Source: a virus
Lineage: Duplodnaviria; Heunggongvirae; Uroviricota; Caudoviricetes
Virus record (IMG/VR): IMGVR_UViG_2541047699_000015
Strand: one strand, 5' to 3'
Length of the DNA: 41,468 nucleotides
The position numbers were made by a program, and so were the translations under genes. Shown here in pieces: positions 3,159 to 38,203 of the stretch (position 1 is the first letter of the stretch; each line of letters opens with the position of its first letter). The notes beneath the pieces are model-generated. The model made no database searches and had not been told where the DNA came from. It was given only the letters and a program-made list of their open reading frames with translations.

Positions 3159-5621
3159 TCAATTCCCTGTTAATTGCAAAACTTGCTCTTCCAGCTTTTT
3201 AACCCTGCGTCTCATCATCGCAGATTCCAGAATCAGAGCCTCTTCATAACGGATACCGTAACATTCACCAGCCTCGACGGCTTCGCGTACCAGAACCTTT
3301 GTCTGTATAAGTGGGTAAACTCCTGCAGAATGCTCTTCTTCCGTCACATCCCTGTATTCTGCCGGGGTCTCATTCCACTTGTCATAACAGATAAATGCCA
3401 GTCGTGACACATCTATGCCTTCATTCTGAAATACACTGATAACATGCTGCGCAACTGCACCAAAGTGCCATCTTGCTCCGTCTTTACCTTTCACTTCGAT
3501 CCTGTCAAGGTACTGGTATGAAACCCATTCCACTCTTTCCCATGCGTCCAGTATTTTCTCATCAATAACCTCTGGAGCAGTCTTGAAACGCGCATCGGAC
3601 AGCACCGTAAACGCTGACTGGGTAAATCCCCCCGACCATGCACGACCAGCCAACCCAAGAGAATAAGTATTCGTTGTCGATGGTGTCATGGCTGAATCAG
3701 AAAACTGTATATATTCTGAATTTCCAGTAGATATTCGAATATTTCCATTTATTAGCGACATAGTGCCTTTAGTATTATCACTATTGAATAATTTCAATTG
3801 CGAACTTATACCGCCTCCCACAGCCAGAGATACATCGCCTTCAGCAAGCATTCTGAATTTATCTGCAGAAACAAGCGTCTGGTTAGCAAGGTTAAAATAT
3901 TTAACCCACCATTCAAAACGCCCTGACATAGTCCCAACGTACTGACCAAGCGCAGGGACGTGAACAACATTGCTATTTGTAGTGCCGTCTATACTGGAAA
4001 TACCAGTCACCGCTGATGCAGAACTCAGAATATTATTTCTGTCACCCGGATGTTTAATTTCAACAAAGTTCCTGATACACCCTTCCTCGAAGGTAACCAC
4101 GCCGGAAGAACTATACATGGGGAATATTGACGCATAATTACTGCGTGCAGCATCTAAGAAACGAATGGTTGTAGATGTCTGCAGATCTCCTGATTCATTT
4201 TTCCCATCACACCCAGTCATTAGAATATTACTGGCAATATTATTATTTCCCTGAACGGTGACTCCGTGCGCCTGCTTTGCGTCCGATTCAGAGTAATCAA
4301 CCAGCACATTCGAAATCAGGTTACCAGTCCCCTTGCCAACAACTACTGCGGCGTATTTTGGGTTGTTAGCCATTACACTGCTAATGATATTATTCGTTGG
4401 GGCAGTTTCCGTCTCAGTTCCATTGTAAACAACGTGCTGACACTCTTCACCAATAACATTGCTGACAATGTTATATTTTGCTGCTGTTTTAAGTTCCACT
4501 GCACCAAACTGAGGATAATTTCTGGCTATCACACCATCAATTAGCGTATTTTGCGATGAATCAAAAAGCACACAACCTGCTTTTTTATTATTTGCGAACC
4601 CTAAATACTCTCCTCTTATATCTCTAACAATGTAACCTGACGGAATACCATTATTCGGATAAGCGATCAAGCTAAATCCTGTTCCTCGCGTATTTGTAAA
4701 TCTGATATTTTTAACCGATACATCATGGCCACCTGAAAATGACACCTGGTGTCCCTGCACACTATCATCTGATTTATTTCCCATAATTGTTAGCGTACTA
4801 AGCATGCCACCATCGGGCATGTTAAAAACCAGATGATTACCATCTCTGTCATACTGTTTTATCGTTCCCCCACCTGTTCCGTACAAGCCACAACGTGAAA
4901 GAGAAACTAAAGATGTATTGAATACCCCTTCCGGAACAAAAACACTGCTAAACGAATGTAATGATTTTGTAAAAGCATCCTTGTTATCATTTAAGATTCC
5001 ATTTTGAGCTCCAAAATCCTTAATGCTGACACCATCACGCATCTTATCCTGGAACGTTCTGTATACCGCTCCAGAACCATACTGAATAAACCAACCAAAA
5101 CCACCAATAACTCCGGCGATTGCAGCATCGACATAATTACGCATTGAGCGATTATTTACAGCGTCCTGCTCAAGTGATGGATCGGCAAGGTTAGATATTC
5201 TGTTTTGCTTTGCATCGTAATATTTTGCAAGCAAAGATGGTTTCATCAATGCACGTCTGAACCACCCAAAACATCGCTGGATCAGCATCGTCAGGTAGTC
5301 AAATGCATCCTCATGAACTTCGGGGAAAAATTTTCCCTGATTGCGAAGATCAGTCTCCTGCACCACATCAAGCACACGCTCTATCGTGATTCGCCAGCCA
5401 GCAGCAAGCGGCGACGGAAGAACCACTGCACCGCCACTATAAGTTCCCGCCCCTGTTACCGTATAACCAGCATCCAGCACTAGTTTTGTAACGTTACCGT
5501 TAAGGTCAGACACCTGAACAACCAGGTCGGATTTTTTGAAAATACGGAAGGTATACGGAAATGATGTCGTAACGCCGTTACCTGTGTATTCGTTGTGGTC
5601 AACTTCGGTTGAGACCGTCAT
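3159..5621 (-). CDS. Tailspike: T7 gp17-like N-terminal anchor, beta-helix (pectate-lyase-like) depolymerase body, C-terminal S74-type autocleaving chaperone
   Basis: N-terminus GNGVTTSFPYTFRIFKKSDLVVQV resembles T7 tail fibre N-terminal domain; Gly/Asn/Ser/Thr-rich repetitive body; C-terminal SDARFK ... WHFG motif of intramolecular chaperone; SD GGAG 8 nt before ATG 5621. Confidence 0.75.
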   Translation of the reverse strand: MTVSTEVDHNEYTGNGVTTSFPYTFRIFKKSDLVVQVSDLNGNVTKLVLDAGYTVTGAGTYSGGAVVLPSPLAAGWRITIERVLDVVQETDLRNQGKFFPEVHEDAFDYLTMLIQRCFGWFRRALMKPSLLAKYYDAKQNRISNLADPSLEQDAVNNRSMRNYVDAAIAGVIGGFGWFIQYGSGAVYRTFQDKMRDGVSIKDFGAQNGILNDNKDAFTKSLHSFSSVFVPEGVFNTSLVSLSRCGLYGTGGGTIKQYDRDGNHLVFNMPDGGMLSTLTIMGNKSDDSVQGHQVSFSGGHDVSVKNIRFTNTRGTGFSLIAYPNNGIPSGYIVRDIRGEYLGFANNKKAGCVLFDSSQNTLIDGVIARNYPQFGAVELKTAAKYNIVSNVIGEECQHVVYNGTETETAPTNNIISSVMANNPKYAAVVVGKGTGNLISNVLVDYSESDAKQAHGVTVQGNNNIASNILMTGCDGKNESGDLQTSTTIRFLDAARSNYASIFPMYSSSGVVTFEEGCIRNFVEIKHPGDRNNILSSASAVTGISSIDGTTNSNVVHVPALGQYVGTMSGRFEWWVKYFNLANQTLVSADKFRMLAEGDVSLAVGGGISSQLKLFNSDNTKGTMSLINGNIRISTGNSEYIQFSDSAMTPSTTNTYSLGLAGRAWSGGFTQSAFTVLSDARFKTAPEVIDEKILDAWERVEWVSYQYLDRIEVKGKDGARWHFGAVAQHVISVFQNEGIDVSRLAFICYDKWNETPAEYRDVTEEEHSAGVYPLIQTKVLVREAVEAGECYGIRYEEALILESAMMRRRVKKLEEQVLQLTGN

Positions 5622-31113: not shown

Positions 31114-31334
31114 TCTTCATCCTCCAAGTCGGCAACGGCGTCCATCACATCAGAACCGCGAATAACCTCAAAAGCACGGCAGGCCATTTGAAATACCAGT
31201 TGCTCTTGCGGGTGAGGAGACTCCCAATATTTGAAGCCTGGGCGATGCGTGTACCCCATCATTGAATAAAAATCACCAGCAAGCTTAATCGCGGCATCGA
31301 CAAGCTCTCTGTTAGTCATTCTTTTTCCGCTCAC
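31110..31334 (-). CDS. Hypothetical early protein
   Basis: 74 aa ORF with 4-nt overlap in early operon. Confidence 0.45.
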   Translation of the reverse strand: MSGKRMTNRELVDAAIKLAGDFYSMMGYTHRPGFKYWESPHPQEQLVFQMACRAFEVIRGSDVMDAVADLEDEE

Positions 31335-31768
31335 TGGTTGCCTCCTTTGCGAAGCTGGGCGGCTAACTCATCACATATGTGCGTCAAAGAACAAAGTTTG
31401 ATTGATGGATGTTCGCGCATCATCTCTACCCCCTGCGCCCGCACTTCAGACAGGAAAGCATCGGTGTCTGGCATATTTCCTGTTGCCTTCATTGCCTCCA
31501 AAATAACCAGAACGCCATCTCGCCCAATCTCCTCGCAGATAACCTCGGTGCTGTCGCCAACAACATCGCAAAATGCCTGAACTGCTTTACGAGCCAGCGC
31601 ATTCTCCGCAGCCAGCGCATTAGCACGCACCAGTTGCACTTCCAGCTGCGTTGCCAAATCGCTGATCAGCTTTGCCACACTGCGCATATCAACGGCACCA
31701 CATTCTGCTTTCAGTTCCGAAGCCATCTCATGCCCGGCGGAAACTAACCCTTTGATATTACTTTCCAT
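31331..31768 (-). CDS. Hypothetical early protein
   Basis: 145 aa ORF in early operon; no family recognised. Confidence 0.5.
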   Translation of the reverse strand: MESNIKGLVSAGHEMASELKAECGAVDMRSVAKLISDLATQLEVQLVRANALAAENALARKAVQAFCDVVGDSTEVICEEIGRDGVLVILEAMKATGNMPDTDAFLSEVRAQGVEMMREHPSIKLCSLTHICDELAAQLRKGGNQ

Positions 31769-31818
31769 CTTTACCCTCGCTTATCCACATAACTTATTGA
31801 TTACATTGATAACTAAAA

Positions 31819-31847
31819 AGATCGTCGATTCATGCCGATCTATTTTT
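31819..31847. terminator. Hairpin terminator overlapping HNH gene stop
   Basis: AGATCG-loop-CGATCT flanked by A5 and T5 runs. Confidence 0.45.
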
Positions 31848-32438
31848 CATCAGTGATTCATAAAACTTTTGCCACTTATGCCGACCGAAATTAGCCTTCG
31901 AGTTACAGCTCGAACAAAGGCAAATAAGGTTCTCCTGACGACAATCTTGCTTGTCGTAATTGATGTGATGAGTTGTTAGCCTTTTGTCTGTTCCATCACA
32001 ACCTGGGTTCTGACAAGTAAAACCATCTCGCTCAATAACCCTCTTGCTCGTTTCTCGGAAATCCCACGGATACGGCAATCTCGATAATCCACCAGACCAG
32101 TTTGGATTTCCTTCCCCCTTCATCAGAGAAGAACGCATTATGTTGGAACACTGTTTCGAGCAGCATTTATGACGCTTCTCATGACTCAAGAAAACGGAGA
32201 ACGAAGATCCGCATACGCAGCATATTTTTAATACTCGCTTTAGTTCCCGATTTACCGTCTTGCCTCGCTGTGAAATTCCTACACACTGAAGTGAGCAGAA
32301 CCTTGAAGATGAGTTGGCTCGCTTAACCTGATATTGCCTGCCACATACGGAGCAAACCTTTTCGATTTTCCCACCCTTCCAATTCGGGTTTTTATCACCG
32401 GATACAATCAATCCCGCAGCATTGGGCTTCTCGCTCAT
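31830..32438 (-). CDS. HNH endonuclease with multiple Cys zinc-binding motifs
   Basis: CxxC pairs and HHINYDKQDCRQENLICLCSSCNSK (HNH motif). Confidence 0.75.
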   Translation of the reverse strand: MSEKPNAAGLIVSGDKNPNWKGGKIEKVCSVCGRQYQVKRANSSSRFCSLQCVGISQRGKTVNRELKRVLKICCVCGSSFSVFLSHEKRHKCCSKQCSNIMRSSLMKGEGNPNWSGGLSRLPYPWDFRETSKRVIERDGFTCQNPGCDGTDKRLTTHHINYDKQDCRQENLICLCSSCNSKANFGRHKWQKFYESLMKNRSA

Positions 32439-32790: not shown

Positions 32791-32869
32791 TTTACCCCTG
32801 AGGTAATTAAAAACCACATAAGACACGAAATCAATAGATTTTAGAATATTTTATTACCTAACAGGTAAT
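32791..32869. promoter_or_regulatory. Two operators downstream of replication genes
   Basis: TTTACCCCTGAGGTAAT (32791-32807) and ATTACCTAACAGGTAAT (32853-32869), between terminator after P-like gene and DUF1064 gene. Confidence 0.6.
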
Positions 32870-32880
32870 TGTCGAGGCGT

Positions 32881-32900
32881 AAAAAAATGCGCTATCGCGC
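32881..32900 (-). terminator. Terminator after replication genes
   Basis: Minus-strand hairpin GCGC-GATA-GCGC followed by ATTTTTTT. Confidence 0.5.
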
Positions 32901-32905
32901 TGGTA

Positions 32906-33691
32906 TTACTTGATAAATCCTGCCGCCTTTCCCCGCCTGTATTCCTCCATCAGCCACTGCGCCGGTGTTATTCCCCCCAGGGTAGCGGCGTTAGGCATAC
33001 ACCCGAAACTTCGCCCTGGTGGATGGTAAACGTCTCTCCCTGTGTCCGGAGGCGTACTCATGGGTTCTGGCTTTGCCTGTATGCTGATCACCGGATCGGG
33101 TATCTGCTGTCCGGAAGCCACCTTTTTCGCCCAATCATCAAGCAGCCTGCGCGCGTGTTTCTCAACCTCAATCTCGCTAAGCTGGCGCTGATACATTGCA
33201 CGGCGGGTATCACATACGACCCAGTACATAACCGGATGCCGCCACGGGAATCTTTCGGGACCACCAGGATATAAACTTTTTTCCTTGCTGTACCGGTGAA
33301 ACTCCGCCATCACATCGTCAATGGTGACGCCAAGAACCATCTTGCTGTCTTTGCACCACTTGATAAATTGCCCTGGAGACGGCCAGAACGGAGATTCACT
33401 GGCGCGGGCGTGGCGCATACCAGCAGAAACCTGTTCACGGGTTCGGATCCCCCCTTCGGCAAACGCAGCAATCCACTGCTGTTTTGCAGCAACTTCCTGC
33501 TCTGGCGTCTTCAGGTTGGTTACCACTGCCGCCGGAAACAGTTGTTTCAGCTGTTTAAAAAGGGCATCAACAAGCCTCTCTGCTGACATGTTCACCACAT
33601 TGTCATTGTTGACGTACTGATGCTCATAACCTGACATGCGAGAAAGGGCTTCTCCGTCACGGTTTTGTATCGCGGTAAAAACGTTGTTCAC
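32906..33691 (-). CDS. Replication protein P-like (helicase loader)
   Basis: Segment QQWIAAFAEGGIRTREQVSAGMRHARASESPFWPSPGQFIKWCK closely resembles lambda P (RRQWVLAFRENGITTMEQVNAGMRVARRQNRPFLPSPGQFVAWCR) from memory; probable GTG start 33691 with SD GGAGGA, overlapping O-like stop. Confidence 0.75.
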   Translation of the reverse strand: MNNVFTAIQNRDGEALSRMSGYEHQYVNNDNVVNMSAERLVDALFKQLKQLFPAAVVTNLKTPEQEVAAKQQWIAAFAEGGIRTREQVSAGMRHARASESPFWPSPGQFIKWCKDSKMVLGVTIDDVMAEFHRYSKEKSLYPGGPERFPWRHPVMYWVVCDTRRAMYQRQLSEIEVEKHARRLLDDWAKKVASGQQIPDPVISIQAKPEPMSTPPDTGRDVYHPPGRSFGCMPNAATLGGITPAQWLMEEYRRGKAAGFIK

Positions 33692-34503
33692 AAGAAATCC
33701 TCCCATGCTTCAGGGCTGTTCCAGTGCGGAACGTTGTTATCAGGTAATGTTGATTGCTTCTGTCTGCTAATCTGCAGCCGCCTTGCCAGCTTCTGCTCCC
33801 ACTGTGCCTGATGGTATGCCTTACCCTCAGCCATCCAGTAAATTCTGAACTCTGCAAGTTCCTGTGCCGTTGGCAGACTGTCCAGGTAGATCCCCTGCAA
33901 TGAGCTTTTCCGAAGAAAGTCATCTGATGGCTGCCATTGTTCATGCATGACAAATTTGCCTAATTGCCCTGGCCCACCAGGAGGAACAAAGTTATTCATC
34001 ACGGCGTTGTTTGCTCCGGGGTCATGAGGCACAGAATCCCCGCTTTTTGTCCTGCTCTCCCTCTCTTGGTTAAATGACTGGTTATATGACTGGTTCTGGA
34101 TCCCGTTTTTGGGATCATTCAACATCCCGTTTTTGGGATCATTCAACATCCCGTTTTTGGGTATATTCCCGTTTTCGGGTATATTCCCGTTTTCGGGTTC
34201 ATTGCCCCCCTCCCGGTTGCCTTTAATGTTCCCGTTTTTGGTTATATTAAGAGAGAAAACCCGCACTCTTTTTGTCGCTCCCTTTCTCTCTCCGGTATCT
34301 GAAATAATCCCCATTTTCATGAGCGATATAAGCCCGGCCTGCACGGTTTTTTTATTCAGGCAAGTGTCTTTAACGAGGCGTTCTATGCTGGGGTAGCAGA
34401 GGTTATATTCATCAGCTCTGTCAGCCATCGAGAGCAGTATGAGCTTTAATGATGAGCTACCTGGATCTGTCTCCCAAGCCCAATCTGTTGCATGTCTGCT
34501 CAT
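33688..34503 (-). CDS. Replication initiator (lambda O-like) with internal iterons
   Basis: N-terminal winged-helix-like domain, central repeat NGNIPENGNIPKNGMLNDPKNGMLNDPKNG encoded by DNA iterons, C-terminal domain; SD GGAG before ATG 34503. Confidence 0.7.
   Translation of the reverse strand: MSRHATDWAWETDPGSSSLKLILLSMADRADEYNLCYPSIERLVKDTCLNKKTVQAGLISLMKMGIISDTGERKGATKRVRVFSLNITKNGNIKGNREGGNEPENGNIPENGNIPKNGMLNDPKNGMLNDPKNGIQNQSYNQSFNQERESRTKSGDSVPHDPGANNAVMNNFVPPGGPGQLGKFVMHEQWQPSDDFLRKSSLQGIYLDSLPTAQELAEFRIYWMAEGKAYHQAQWEQKLARRLQISRQKQSTLPDNNVPHWNSPEAWEDFL
34101..34247. repeat. Origin iterons (six direct repeats, core TCCCGTTTT(T/C)GGG) inside O-like gene
   Basis: Copies start at 34101, 34125, 34149, 34167, 34185, 34230; first two are identical 24-mers. 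Confidence 0.8.
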
Positions 34504-34518
34504 GATTAATCTCCGCTA

Positions 34519-34719
34519 TCAGCTTGAATGTTGTGGGGAGGAATTAATCATGATCTGCTTAATCTCTGCCCTGATGCGACGGTTTGACTCCATGGTGCAC
34601 TCAACACAGTGTCCGTTGTAAACCCAGCGTTCACTGTCATGTCCGTGCTTACATGGTTTTCCGGTGTAGTAGCGTTTAAGTCCGCGCTTTGCGGCATCAA
34701 TACGTGTAATGATTTCCAT
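34519..34719 (-). CDS. Small Cys/His-cluster regulatory protein in CII-like position
   Basis: Start ATG 34719 (MEIITR...); motif GKPCKHGHDSERWVYNGHCVEC; between cro-like and O-like genes. Confidence 0.5.
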   Translation of the reverse strand: MEIITRIDAAKRGLKRYYTGKPCKHGHDSERWVYNGHCVECTMESNRRIRAEIKQIMINSSPQHSS

Positions 34720-34798
34720 GGTAAGCCCTGTTATTAGTATTGGGATTACGGTTATTTTGTGCTGACACAAAAAAAAGATCAACCAGATTTGGTTTTTT

Positions 34799-34815
34799 AT
34801 TACCTTTGAGGTACG
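34799..34815. promoter_or_regulatory. Operator ATTACCTTTGAGGTACG downstream of cro terminator
   Basis: One perfect half-site and one 4/5 half-site. Confidence 0.5.
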
Positions 34816-34824
34816 AATAGATAT

Positions 34825-34847
34825 GAAAAGACCGCCGGATGGCGGTC
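34825..34847 (-). terminator. Weak terminator after cro-like gene
   Basis: Minus-strand hairpin GACCGCC-ATCC-GGCGGTC followed by TTTTC. Confidence 0.45.
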
Positions 34848-34869
34848 TACAGAGGGTTGTTGCCAGATA

Positions 34870-35100
34870 TCATGAGTAGAAGAAGTATGCCAGTTCCGCT
34901 TTTGAGCGCAGCCATTGTCTTGTTTTACAGGCTTTAAAAAGCCCATTCATCAATACCTTACCTGGCATTTTGCGCTTACCTGTTAAGTGAGTCTGGATAT
35001 AGTGACTCGTCGTTCCGGCTTCCTGTGCGAAGGCTTCACGCTCATCCGGAGTAAGTGCAAGCCAGTGCTTTTTGAAATCGAAATGTCCGTTATCGCTCAT
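34870..35100 (-). CDS. Cro-like HTH regulator
   Basis: 76 aa, first gene of the operon that contains the replication genes, divergent from CI-like gene; HTH-like segment AFAQEAGTTSHYIQTHLTG. Confidence 0.6.
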   Translation of the reverse strand: MSDNGHFDFKKHWLALTPDEREAFAQEAGTTSHYIQTHLTGKRKMPGKVLMNGLFKACKTRQWLRSKAELAYFFYS

Positions 35101-35135
35101 AGCTATTGCCTGATATTTATTTCAGATAATAAATA

Positions 35136-35200
35136 TTCACCCATAAGGTAACAAAAATCAAGGATAGTTACCTATGGGGTGCATTTACCTGTTGGGTAAT
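35136..35200. promoter_or_regulatory. OR-like region: three operators between cro-like and CI-like genes
   Basis: TTCACCCATAAGGTAAC (35136-35152), GTTACCTATGGGGTGCA (35167-35183), TTTACCTGTTGGGTAAT (35184-35200); candidate -10 TAATAT at 35197-35202. Confidence 0.6.
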
Positions 35201-35254
35201 ATTGCTTTAAATTGAATCATCTACTGATTCATATATGAGGCGATTTTCCAGAAA

Positions 35255-35839
35255 ATGAAAAGTATCCAGGACGTCCGCAGGCAAAATCTCAACGACTTGA
35301 TCGACCGTGAATTCAATGGTGTTCAGACGCGGATGGCAGAAAAACTTGGAACTCAGGCAAATCTGGTAAACCGCTGGGCTCTTGGCAAGAAGGTTATCGG
35401 CGACCAGGTTGCGCGAAAAATTGAAGCTGCCGCCAATAAACCCCGTAACTGGCTTGATATCGATCGCTCGCTTTCTCAGGAAGGTTTTCAGCCTGTCGGC
35501 CCAAGCGACATTGGTCAGCTGGCAGCTCACAACCTGGAACGCTGGATGAGTGAAAGCCGCGACCTTTCAACTCAGGGAAAACTTCACCGCGCATCCGGCG
35601 TCGCCCAGGTGACAATAAGCCGCCTGTTAAACAATGAGGTCAGCGTTTCCATTTCCACCCTGGAGAATGTTGCATCTGCATTCGGGCGTCACGGATATGA
35701 ACTACTGATTCATCCGCATGACCCTGCGACCATCAACTATGATCGCTCGCGCTACGCATTGTTACCCGAAACCGAGAAAGCAAAGATCGAAAGTTACATT
35801 GAATTTGTCATCAACCAGAACGAAAAAAACAAACAATAA
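35255..35839 (+). CDS. CI-like prophage repressor with two tandem HTH (XRE-type) domains, no peptidase domain
   Basis: HTH1 about residues 20-60 (QTRMAEKLGTQANLVNRW), HTH2 about 110-150 (LHRASGVAQVTISRLLNN); 194 aa; no LexA-like Ser/Lys autocleavage module. Confidence 0.65.
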   Translation: MKSIQDVRRQNLNDLIDREFNGVQTRMAEKLGTQANLVNRWALGKKVIGDQVARKIEAAANKPRNWLDIDRSLSQEGFQPVGPSDIGQLAAHNLERWMSESRDLSTQGKLHRASGVAQVTISRLLNNEVSVSISTLENVASAFGRHGYELLIHPHDPATINYDRSRYALLPETEKAKIESYIEFVINQNEKNKQ

Positions 35840-36147: not shown

Positions 36148-36447
36148 ATGAACGTTAATCAGCAGAAAAATCTTCAAAAAATCATGCTGGCATTCGACAA
36201 GGACTACCGTCTGTCAGAACAGCTATATGACCGACAAGTTGAACTGATTGAGAGTATCCGGCTTCATCAACTGGCATCAACTTTCGACGTTGTAACAGTT
36301 AAAGGCGTTCGCCAGGAAGTACTGGAGGCCGCTAAAGACAGCCCTGAGTTCGAAGAACTAATGGATGCCTACCGGCGCGAGGCAATGGCAATTATCGCCC
36401 GCTGGGATCTGGCTGATCAGCTTGATGGGCAGAGGGACGCGGCATGA
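36148..36447 (+). CDS. Hypothetical early protein
   Basis: SD GGGAGGG before ATG 36148; 99 aa. Confidence 0.5.
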   Translation: MNVNQQKNLQKIMLAFDKDYRLSEQLYDRQVELIESIRLHQLASTFDVVTVKGVRQEVLEAAKDSPEFEELMDAYRREAMAIIARWDLADQLDGQRDAA

Positions 36448-37265
36448 AACCGGGAATTTATTTCGACATCAGCAACGAAGACTACCACGCCGGTGACGGC
36501 GTGAGTAAGTCGCAACTGGACATGGTTGCCAAGAATCCGGCGCTTCTTAAATGGGTTCAGGCAGCACCAGAAGACGAAGAGAAAAAGTCTGCACTGGATA
36601 TGGGAACCGCATTGCACTGTCTGCTTCTGGAGCCTGGAGAGTTCGACAAACGCTTCATTGTTTCACCGAAATTCGATCGTCGGACGAAACAAGGTAAAGC
36701 TGACGAAGAGGAATTTCTTCGTGATGTGGCGGATATGGGGATTACGGTACTTGATGCCGAGCAGTGGCGGAAACTGGAGCTGATGCGTGATAGCGCAATG
36801 GCTCACCCGGCGGCACGCTGGATGCTGGAAGCACCTGGTTACTGCGAAGCATCAATGTACTGGAACGATGAAGAGACGGGGGAGTTGTGCCGAATTCGTC
36901 CAGACAAATGGCTGAACGAGCACAACGTGATCGTCGACGTGAAAAAGGTTGCAGATATGGACCGTTTTGCACGCCACATCGAGGAATTCCGCTACCACGT
37001 GCAGGACGCAATGTACCGCGAAGGCGCAATGAGGGTTACTGGTCAGCCGCATGGTTTTTTCTTTCTTGCCGTGAGCGAAAGCATTGATTGTGGTCGGTAT
37101 CCGGTACGCGTGTTCGAGCTGGATGCGCAGGATGTCGATGCCGGGCACGCTCTGTTCCGCCGGGATCTGAATACCTATCACGAATGCCGCATCAATGATG
37201 AATGGGGCGGTGTGGAAATCATTAAACGCCCTGAGTGGGCACGCAAACAGGATATGTACATATGA
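36444..37265 (+). CDS. Recombination exonuclease (YqaJ/lambda-Exo-like PD-(D/E)xK)
   Basis: Motifs RPDKW ... VIVDVKK; immediately upstream of annealing-protein gene with overlapping stop/start. Confidence 0.6.
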   Translation: MKPGIYFDISNEDYHAGDGVSKSQLDMVAKNPALLKWVQAAPEDEEKKSALDMGTALHCLLLEPGEFDKRFIVSPKFDRRTKQGKADEEEFLRDVADMGITVLDAEQWRKLELMRDSAMAHPAARWMLEAPGYCEASMYWNDEETGELCRIRPDKWLNEHNVIVDVKKVADMDRFARHIEEFRYHVQDAMYREGAMRVTGQPHGFFFLAVSESIDCGRYPVRVFELDAQDVDAGHALFRRDLNTYHECRINDEWGGVEIIKRPEWARKQDMYI

Positions 37266-38203
37266 GCAACGACATCGCAAACATCAACGCACCAGTAGAC
37301 ACAGCAATCGCTGGAACTGCTGCAACTATTTTCAGCCCAGACGGCTTGAACCAACTGATGAAATTCGCCGAGGTAATGGCGCAAAGCCGCGTAACGGTAC
37401 CGGCGCACCTCGCCGGGAAACCAGCTGATTGCATGGCCGTGGCAATGCAGGCTGCGCAGTGGGGAATGAACCCGTTTGCCGTGGCTCAGAAAACCCATGT
37501 TGTGAACGGCACGCTAGGTTATGAAGCCCAATTAGTAAACGCAGTTATCTCAACGATGTCGCCAACAAAAGATCGCATCAACTACGAGTGGTTCGGGCCG
37601 TGGGAACGCGTGATCGGTAAGTTTGTTGAGAAAACATCCAAAAACGGCAATCCATATATCGCACCAGGCTGGACTCTAAAAGACGAAGAAGGCTGCGGTG
37701 TTCGCGTATGGGCAACCATGAAGGGCGAGGATCAACCTCGAGTGCTTGAGTTAATGCTGTCTCAAGCACAGGTAAGAAACTCCACACTTTGGGCCAGTGA
37801 TCCGAAACAACAACTCGCATACCTTGCGACAAAACGCTGGTCTCGCCTGCACTGTCCTGACGTAATCATGGGCGTCTACACCCCAGACGAATTACAGGAA
37901 ACGGCACCGCGCGTTGAGCGAGACATTACTCCGCAAACGACCACTGCTGCGGGAATGAACAGTCTGATCAACGCTAAACCAGCGAAAAAGCCTGATGAGC
38001 AAACGCGTAAATCGGACAGCCGTGATCCAGAAGAAATGCTGATGGCCTTTACCAGCGCAGCGATGAATTACAGCACTGTCTCCGAACTGGATAAGGCTTA
38101 CAAATACATTGCACAAAAACTTTCAGATGATGACGAACTGCTGGCAAAAGCAACCGACGTTTACAGCGTTCGTCGGGAAGAATTAAACGAAACATCTATG
38201 TAA
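37262..38203 (+). CDS. Single-strand annealing protein (RecT/Redbeta family)
   Basis: DCMAVAMQAAQWGMNPFAVAQKTHVV resembles lambda Bet DAQFIALLIVANQYGLNPWTKEIYAF from memory; paired with exonuclease. Confidence 0.6.
   Translation: MSNDIANINAPVDTAIAGTAATIFSPDGLNQLMKFAEVMAQSRVTVPAHLAGKPADCMAVAMQAAQWGMNPFAVAQKTHVVNGTLGYEAQLVNAVISTMSPTKDRINYEWFGPWERVIGKFVEKTSKNGNPYIAPGWTLKDEEGCGVRVWATMKGEDQPRVLELMLSQAQVRNSTLWASDPKQQLAYLATKRWSRLHCPDVIMGVYTPDELQETAPRVERDITPQTTTAAGMNSLINAKPAKKPDEQTRKSDSRDPEEMLMAFTSAAMNYSTVSELDKAYKYIAQKLSDDDELLAKATDVYSVRREELNETSM

Follow-up and report, generated by a model that had tools for sequence, protein, structure and literature searches.

The DNA analysed here, a viral stretch of 41,468 nucleotides (nt) from IMG/VR record IMGVR_UViG_2541047699_000015 (the window, by which the whole of this stretch is meant), is a phiV10-like (Uetakevirus) prophage. 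Its early region carries the gene of a putative replication initiator, and in the middle of this gene, at 34100-34244, lies an array of six short direct repeats (iterons). On the minus strand the genes follow in the order cro-like gene, small open reading frame (ORF), initiator gene, lambda-P-family gene and DUF1064 gene, and it is from this order that we place the initiator downstream of cro in the early operon. The array is very probably the replication origin of this temperate phage, of the kind known from lambda and phi80 and located inside the gene of its own initiator. The features of the locus are collected in Table 1.

Six exact copies of TCCCGTTTTYGG were found in a motif scan of the window, starting at 34101, 34125, 34149, 34167, 34185 and 34230, with spacings from copy to copy of 24, 24, 18, 18 and 45 base pairs (bp). 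When one mismatch is allowed, the whole 41.5-kilobase (kb) window holds seven sites, the six iterons and one extra, as compared with a mean of 0.34 matches in shuffled windows, none of which (0 of 100) reached seven. Tandem Repeats Finder detects a 24-bp unit in 2.6 copies with 100% match (34100-34161) and an 18-bp unit in 2.8 copies (34149-34198), and a repeat-family search puts all six iterons in one family. The initial annotation of this DNA, which had reported six direct repeats at these spacings and proposed a tandem-repeat search as a check, agrees with all three approaches. It had also stated that the repeats encode the peptide repeat of gene 33688-34503, as they do: in frame, CCC AAA AAC GGG (P-K-N-G) gives rise to ...NEPENGNIPENGNIPKNGMLNDPKNGMLNDPKNG... 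in the protein. We refine it in noting that the gene lies on the minus strand, that the sixth copy has a degenerate arm, and that an adjoining 12-bp tandem repeat had been overlooked. Neither Tandem Repeats Finder nor the motif scan revealed a further repeat cluster of the iteron type in the window.

Each 16-bp iteron is partly palindromic, with a CC-N6-GG core, and reads ATCCCAAAAACGGGAT or ACCCGAAAACGGGAAT in the coding sense; in iteron 6 one arm is degenerate (AACC...GGGA). Family-wide, the outer-arm position is complementary in 63% of cases vs 43% in shuffles, a significant difference. On the plus strand, neighbouring iteron arms at 34110-34129 and 34134-34153 form hairpins with a T-run, giving a terminator-like score on the antisense strand that is probably a by-product of the iteron dyads.

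Table 1. Features of the initiator locus, in window coordinates (aa, amino acids)
Feature	Position	Strand	Remarks
Initiator ("O-like") gene	33688-34503	minus	271 aa
Winged-helix HTH_36 domain	34240-34503	minus	aa 1-88; Pfam and AlphaFold model
Low-confidence linker		minus	aa ~89-183; encoded by iterons and 12-mers
DnaT-type C-terminal domain	33748-33954	minus	aa 184-252; Pfam
Iteron 1	34100-34115	minus	coding strand ATCCCAAAAACGGGAT; 5-bp inverted arms ATCCC/GGGAT; nearest the 12-mers
Iteron 2	34124-34139	minus	same sequence as iteron 1, 24 bp away
Iteron 3	34148-34163	minus	coding strand TACCCAAAAACGGGAT
Iteron 4	34166-34181	minus	coding strand TACCCGAAAACGGGAA; 1 mismatch vs phi80 gp15 site TTCCCGAAAACGGGAA
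Iteron 5	34184-34199	minus	coding strand AACCCGAAAACGGGAA; 2 mismatches vs phi80 site
Possible degenerate half-iteron (weak)	34211-34223	minus	plus strand TCCCGGTTGCCTT; 8/13 core matches; other reading frame
Iteron 6 (distal)	34229-34244	minus	coding strand TAACCAAAAACGGGAA; 45 bp from iteron 5
Tandem 12-mers, candidate unwinding/single-stranded-DNA-binding element	34061-34096	minus	coding strand GAACCAGTCATA TAACCAGTCATT TAACCAAGAGAG
Helicase-loader gene, lambda P family	32906-33706	minus	PF06992, 1.5e-56; overlaps initiator gene end
Cro-like gene	34870-35100	minus	gene order
Promoter-like site upstream of cro-like gene	35126-35154	minus	consensus match only
Repressor-like gene	35255-35839	plus	early region of temperate phage

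In the initiator protein, Pfam recognises HTH_36 at residues 18-67 and a DnaT DNA-binding domain at residues 184-252. An AlphaFold2 model built from 119 diverse relatives contains a single, confidently predicted winged helix (residues 1-88; predicted local distance difference test score, pLDDT, 89-98) and a helical C-terminal domain of moderate confidence, with low confidence for the residues encoded by the repeats (pLDDT 43-56). According to this model the repeats sit in a linker where the protein would tolerate almost any sequence, which would leave the DNA free for a second function. Most matches of Foldseek searches against BFVD were phage proteins of the HTH_36 type; a single 'lambda GpO N-terminal' entry stood at rank 35 (E 1.5e-5), and generic winged helices matched as well. 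Searches against the PDB returned generic winged helices only. No solved structure was found for the lambda O N-terminal domain or for an N-terminal domain (N-domain) of the window type.

The closest counterpart of the iterons is found in phage phi80, where four gp15 binding sites (AACCGGAAACGGGAA, TTCCCGAAAACGGGAA, TTCCCGAAATCAGGAA and TTCCCGAAAACGGTA) are annotated in the middle of initiator gene 15, whose product is replication initiation protein 15, 'similar to lambda O'. The phi80 consensus TTCCCGAAAACGGGAA matches the window at 34166-34181 with one mismatch and at 34184-34199 with two, where 0.04 matches are expected; these are iterons 4 and 5, and the window iterons are therefore, by sequence, phi80-type sites. 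In phi80, too, a P-like gene (gene 14) follows directly, and the near-identical relative BP9 names its own P-like protein 'replication protein 14'. The systems differ in that the N-domain of gp15 belongs to Phage_rep_O and that of the window protein to HTH_36, the two showing no significant similarity in pairwise comparison, and in that the phi80 spacings (20, 21 and 21) are not all multiples of 3. Moreover, the phi80 iterons are followed by an AT-rich tract and a lambda-type ...GAGAATTCTGACGAATCCTCTGAC segment, not by the GAAYC repeats described below, and the C-terminal domain differs, that of the window being DnaT-type. Iterons nearly identical to those of phi80 thus appear paired with an initiator of another sequence family and a DnaT-like C-domain. 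Positions 3664-3740 of the phi80 record and 34166-34199 of the window have almost the same iteron core, CCCGAAAACGGGAA, although their initiators show no significant sequence similarity. The shared core could be due to very ancient shared descent of the N-domain plus ori cassette, or to convergence, and cross-recognition between phi80-type and window-type phages is conceivable.

The lambda O gene has four annotated iterons (ATCCCTCAAAACGAGGGA and variants) in its middle, and after them comes an A-rich, AT-rich tract; iterons and an AT-rich tract in the middle of O form the paradigm for lambda and the Stx phages (PMC7466680). The window resembles ori-lambda in its architecture, in the gene order (O, then P), in an A-rich coding strand and in partly palindromic iterons with an A-tract centre (ATCCCTCAAAACGAGGGA as compared with ATCCCAAAAACGGGAT). 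Natural variation of iteron number, which adds residues to the protein, is likewise known from these phages, with four iterons in lambda and six in Stx phages 933W and P27 (PMC7466680). It differs from ori-lambda in the half-site offset (13 bp in lambda, 10 bp in the window), in having no 40-bp AT-rich tract, in an N-domain that is not Phage_rep_O and in a C-domain that is DnaT-like rather than the lambda O C-terminus. We therefore read the element as one that works like a lambda or phi80 origin, but whose initiator is not filed in the lambda O family.

Adjacent to the iterons lies a second repeated element, which came to light in a comparison of relatives sharing the N-domain (the N-domain family). 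The best 120 matches of a homologue search were all near-identical E. coli proteins, and diverse homologues were taken instead from a profile search and from 80 genomic loci of gamma-, beta-, alpha- and delta-proteobacteria, with N-domains 41-88% identical. In essentially every family member, two or three tandem copies of a repeat of the form GAAYC-N3-CA-N2-3 (12/13-mers) stand directly after the last iteron. In the window they are detected by Tandem Repeats Finder as a 12-bp unit, TGGTTAAATGAC, in 2.4 copies at 34067-34095, and the third copy begins TAACC.... The CC of iteron 1 begins 16 nt ahead of the first 12-mer, and in 59 of 68 family genes the first GAAYC stands at this same distance from the CC of the last iteron. 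Measured from the first 12-mer, the window iterons are at -16, -40, -64, -82, -100 and -145, nearly the positions in Edwardsiella phage GF-2 (-16, -40, -64, -82, -99 and -146); the relative position of iteron 6 (-145/-146) is that of the distal iteron in both GF-2 and Vibrio phage Her. A loose scan also caught the half-iteron candidate, at -133, between iterons 5 and 6. Triple GAAYC at 12/13-nt spacing occurs at 51 of 77 loci, always at nt 300-500, as compared with two occurrences in 645 kb of flanks (both strands). In many genes the spacing is 13 and then 12, with successive copies out of frame (in Her, QNQS and then EPVI), and because the copies fall in different frames the conservation of the 12/13-mers is also at the DNA level.

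The family mean AT content exceeds that of the surroundings by 19 percentage points at +20 to +40 from the first 12-mer. The lambda-like portion of the GF-2 gene (...GAGAATTCTGACGAATCCTC...) starts right after the 12-mers, which therefore occupy the place of the AT-rich tract of lambda. In the unwinding elements of plasmids and chromosomes, repeated 13-mers or 8-mers are needed for binding of the initiator to single-stranded DNA (ssDNA) and for origin function (PMC4081077). We tentatively propose, giving it slightly less than an even chance, that the 12/13-mers act as an unwinding element in place of the lambda AT-rich tract.

Four features by which a lambdoid origin is recognised are present at this locus: six direct repeats with dyad symmetry in the middle of the gene, between the DNA-binding and DnaT-type domains, a relation to O-type sites, a P-family gene downstream and an operon downstream of cro. 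The comparison with the phi80 sites, the arrays of homologues and the domain architecture support the proposal, made in the initial annotation, that the repeats mark the probable replication origin. The likeness to ori-lambda on which that proposal was built stands as regards the position in the linker, the P-family gene, the cro-side operon, the phi80-like sites and the conservation as DNA, but no 40-bp AT-rich tract of the lambda kind was found. By sequence the initiator is not a member of the lambda O family, matching Pfam HTH_36 and not Phage_rep_O.

One may picture initiation as follows. The winged-helix N-domain (residues 1-88) would bind the six iterons, probably as dimers, in a complex resembling the 'O-some', and the duplex would open at the adjacent tandem 12-mers (34061-34096), 16 nt past the last iteron. 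The host's DnaB helicase would then be recruited by the DnaT-like C-domain together with the lambda-P-family protein. Transcripts started early at the promoter on the cro side would cross the origin, and the promoter-like site at 35126-35154 is a candidate for this early promoter. Binding, unwinding at the 12-mers, helicase loading and replication start at the array are all steps that we infer.

Several observations weigh against this reading. All iteron spacings of the window are multiples of 3, and for this reason the window alone cannot separate selection on the DNA from selection on the peptide. Covariation at the next (third) arm position is not beyond chance, so that covariation of the dyads is weak overall. 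An AT-rich tract of 40 bp like that of lambda was sought beside the iterons and not found; the 12-mer region, with a GC content of 0.425, is, among all 25-mers of the window, only in the ~5% of lowest stability, and the least stable spot of the gene (34235-34259) is on the opposite side of the array. Membership of the initiator in Pfam Phage_rep_O (PF04492), which matches lambda O (5.7e-36) and phi80 gp15 (6e-25), was rejected, the only matches being HTH_36 and DnaT; comparison of the initiator with lambda O and phi80 gp15 by BLASTP yielded no significant match, and hhalign of the two N-domain types gave a probability of 17% over 27 columns of the helix-turn-helix. Prophages that are nearly identical carry anything between 4 and 9 iterons, so that individual copies may be dispensable. 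The cumulative GC-skew minimum, at about 34-36 kb, is close to the iterons but equally to the divergent repressor/cro promoters; the causes are inseparable, and the skew does not discriminate because its minimum coincides with the switch in transcription direction. Finally, our literature search found no experimental work on any member of the N-domain family.

An unlikely alternative is that the iterons are true initiator sites whose role is regulatory (titration or 'handcuffing' of the initiator, a roadblock to transcription, or exclusion of superinfecting phages of the same type), with replication starting elsewhere. Control functions of this sort are known for plasmid iterons, and lambda-type phages are inhibited by lambda ori fragments that have been cloned (PMC3349717, PMC5397158); a regulatory role would also fit the lack of a strong adjoining AT-rich tract. 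However, a last iteron tied at a constant 16 nt to another repeated element has the look of an initiation module, the order of iterons and then an AT-enriched element along transcription matches that of lambda and phi80, and the window has no other such cluster.

Still less probable is that the repeats matter only as peptide, a flexible PKNG linker rich in N, G and P that expands and contracts by slippage and has no role as DNA. The in-frame spacings of the window do yield a clean peptide repeat, the repeat region is modelled with low confidence, and near-identical prophages differ in copy number by entire units of 18 or 24 bp, all as such a linker would have it. Yet each unit has partial dyad symmetry, and its core equals the annotated DNA-binding sites of phi80. 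In addition, the relatives that share only the N-domain, namely Edwardsiella GF-2 (58% identity), Vibrio Her (58%), Acinetobacter AP22 (47%) and E. coli PPompW (48%), have 3-6 copies of related motifs (CCCAAAAACGGG, CCCGAAAACGG and CCCAAAATTGGG) at nt ~270-470 of the gene, and a single motif is read in two or three frames within one gene: as TQKRD and PKIG in GF-2, as DPKTE and PENG in Her, and as TQKRE and PKNG in PPompW.

The same holds across the family. When the most-repeated 11-mer of each gene in the diverse loci was scored, at least four copies were found in 57 of 76 genes but in 1 of 225 flanking controls of equal length, and the copies concentrate at nt 200-500 of the gene, just after the N-domain. 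More than one reading frame is used in 54 of 65 arrays, and the commonest spacings are 17, 22 and 24, two of which (17 and 22) do not keep the frame. The exhaustive profile search (E<=1e-10) found the N-domain, always N-terminal, in 513 clusters at the 50% identity level. In 120 full-length representatives, at most 50% identical, the footprints left by the motif in the three frames (P[KE]xG, [TS]QKR and PKT[EDG], as in PKNG, TQKR and PKTE) number 2.1, 0.6 and 0.5 per 100 residues of the linker vs 0.005-0.015 in the rest of the proteins, and 70 of the 120 show at least two frames. Because the copies are usually in mixed reading frames, the repeats are conserved as DNA rather than as peptide.

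That the repeats are neutral leftovers, or recombination joints at which initiator N- and C-modules are swapped, with no binding function, is highly improbable: modules are indeed exchanged right after the 12-mers, where the lambda-like C-terminal part of GF-2 begins, and the C-domains vary widely, but motif, copy pattern and exact spacing are kept in prophages of gamma-, beta-, alpha- and delta-proteobacteria whose proteins are 41-88% identical, as neutral DNA would not be. As far as the sequences tell, frame-independent conservation and the fixed coupling to the 12/13-mers disfavour all three alternatives to the origin.

The distribution of the array points to the N-domain as its partner. 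The DnaT C-domain is present in 18 of 119 representatives, most C-terminal parts having no Pfam match; in GF-2, the C-terminus to which the window-type N-domain and iterons are joined shares 62% identity with the lambda O C-terminus, and in AP22 the initiator gene is followed by a gene for a DnaB-like helicase. Conversely, the Uetakeviruses Tyrion and SPN1S have the DnaT C-domain with different N-domains and no such repeats. The iterons thus travel with the N-domain and not with the C-domain, which is the pattern expected if the N-domain recognises them. Lambda O is itself modular, with an ori-specific N-terminus and a P-specific C-terminus, and the pattern in the window family matches this. 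The O protein of Stx2 phage Min27 has an HTH_36 N-domain 28% identical to that of the window and, at the equivalent position, three copies of an unrelated 21-mer, suggesting that iterons after an HTH_36 domain are general, with diverging specificity. In the Min27 record this 21-mer, GGGGTGGGGCAGGAGCTGCCC, occupies 1790-1855 in its three copies.

Other initiator types were considered as well. Iteron plasmid origins (RK2 oriV, F oriS) and oriC also set initiator sites beside short repeats in tandem, and how many of these there are, what they read and where they lie all matter (PMC4081077), much as the window has a winged-helix initiator and the family two or three tandem 12/13-mers whose distance to the last iteron is constant; the 12-mers of the window differ in being only moderately AT-rich and in lying inside a coding region. 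The window initiator has one winged helix and not the WH1-WH2 pair of iteron-plasmid Rep proteins, and with no Rep family found in the Pfam scan its identification as such a Rep was rejected. Structures of staphylococcal RepA N-domains gave weak fold matches only (5kbj, 4pql; E 0.06-0.08). As to E. coli DnaT, a protein of the primosome and of replication restart, residues 180-265 of the initiator align to DnaT residues 85-170 (PDB 9zbt, 6aep, 4ou6; E about 1e-20), so that its C-terminal 85 residues correspond to the DnaT ssDNA-binding domain. This one domain is all that the two have in common, whereas the N-terminal two thirds of the window protein is a phage initiator module; orthology to DnaT was rejected, given the HTH_36 N-terminus and an architecture that is not that of full-length DnaT, in which an N-terminal oligomerisation domain precedes the ssDNA-binding domain.

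The initiator gene is 96-99% identical to those of Escherichia phages EC.W1-9, phiv142-3, PAS61 and phiV10, the last a Uetakevirus whose record notes compare neighbouring genes with phage epsilon15. Of 5426 complete E. coli genomes, 424 (about 8%) carry it, almost always on the chromosome, i.e. as prophage. The public records checked annotate neither an origin nor repeats at this gene, and their product names ('primosomal protein', 'replication initiation protein', 'DnaT-like ssDNA-binding domain-containing protein') hide the initiator role where they say 'primosomal' or 'DnaT-like'. Among 80 near-identical viral contigs, whose genes are otherwise 98-100% identical, the iterons number 4-9, with differences that are in every case entire units of 18 or 24 bp, and the 12-mer is present in 1-3 copies. 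The window pattern, 45-18-18-24-24, is the commonest (57 of 81 sequences, window included); BP9 has one 24-bp unit fewer, phiV10 one 12-mer more, and the lengths of E. coli homologues (279, 287, 291 and 311 residues) reflect the same variation by whole units.

Some of the public records are themselves peculiar. In PP488543.1 (phage BP9, 138 kb, classed as Vequintavirus; 131937-138295) and in PP350014.1 (PH444, 115 kb), the phiV10-like early/replication region lies at or near the record end; in the Vequintavirus record this looks like a chimeric assembly or prophage contamination. KP869107.1 and KP869108.1, of E. coli O157 typing phages 9 and 10, start or stop inside the initiator gene, one of these typing phage records breaking just where the iteron array ends (query position 516, about 34203 in the window), probably an assembly break caused by the repeats.

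Further features were noted around the array. Two purine-rich stretches of the coding strand flanking the origin (34253-34300 and 34030-34066) share AGAGA..G..GAGC..GACAAAAAG, with a local score of 22 vs 13.3 +/- 2.3 in shuffles, a value attained by 5 of 1000; in the upstream copy the conserved N-domain wing, DTGERKG-TKR, is encoded, and the two may represent an old partial duplication or chance. No DnaA boxes lie near the array, the nearest being 2.3 kb away. A perfect DnaA-box consensus, TTATCCACA, is found on the plus strand at 31781-31789, between ORFs 31331-31768 and 31830-32438; TTWTNCACA has two matches in the window vs 4.4 expected, and the DnaA box is not significant. ORF 31830-32438 (minus strand), which adjoins the DUF1064 gene, encodes a cysteine-rich protein of 202 residues that matches zinc-finger and HNH families weakly. 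Since phiV10 has an eae-like gene in its place, the ORF may be an insertion coding for a homing-type nuclease. On the plus strand, a 273-residue ORF (36444-37265) and a RecT-like ORF (37235-38203) are separate and overlapping; the phiV10 equivalent is one 1761-nt coding sequence noted as a RecE-RecT fusion, while BP9 has the two annotated separately, as in the window, the 822-nt counterpart being named exodeoxyribonuclease VIII. Rfam gave no match at 32800-35400.

The known picture of lambdoid replication is unchanged by these findings, the layout being in the ordinary style of lambda and phi80, and the 12/13-mer element with its exact spacing is the only part that may be new. A literature search on phage names, HTH_36 initiators and iteron strings, which left most subscription-journal papers uncovered, found no description of the origin or of the 12/13-mers. 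It is possible, although we hold this with some doubt, that iterons and fixed-distance GAAYC 12/13-mers form an undescribed and widespread origin module, present in more than 500 protein clusters and in prophages from Escherichia to Acinetobacter and Desulfovibrio, in which the 12/13-mers serve as a sequence-specific unwinding or ssDNA-binding element, like the 13-mers in oriC and RK2, recognised by the same winged-helix N-domain. If this is true, the core common to HTH_36-type and phi80 Phage_rep_O domains would point to deep common ancestry of an 'N-domain plus ori' cassette, with possible cross-talk between such phages in one cell. For phiV10- and epsilon15-like phages, the array is a concrete origin candidate, in a gene carried by about 8% of complete E. 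coli genomes. For hundreds of prophage groups, the combination of an HTH_36 N-domain, iterons, and GAAYC 12/13-mers 16 nt after the last iteron would provide a rule for finding origins, and the module may offer a natural system for studying how a lambda-type initiator opens DNA that has no obvious AT-rich tract.

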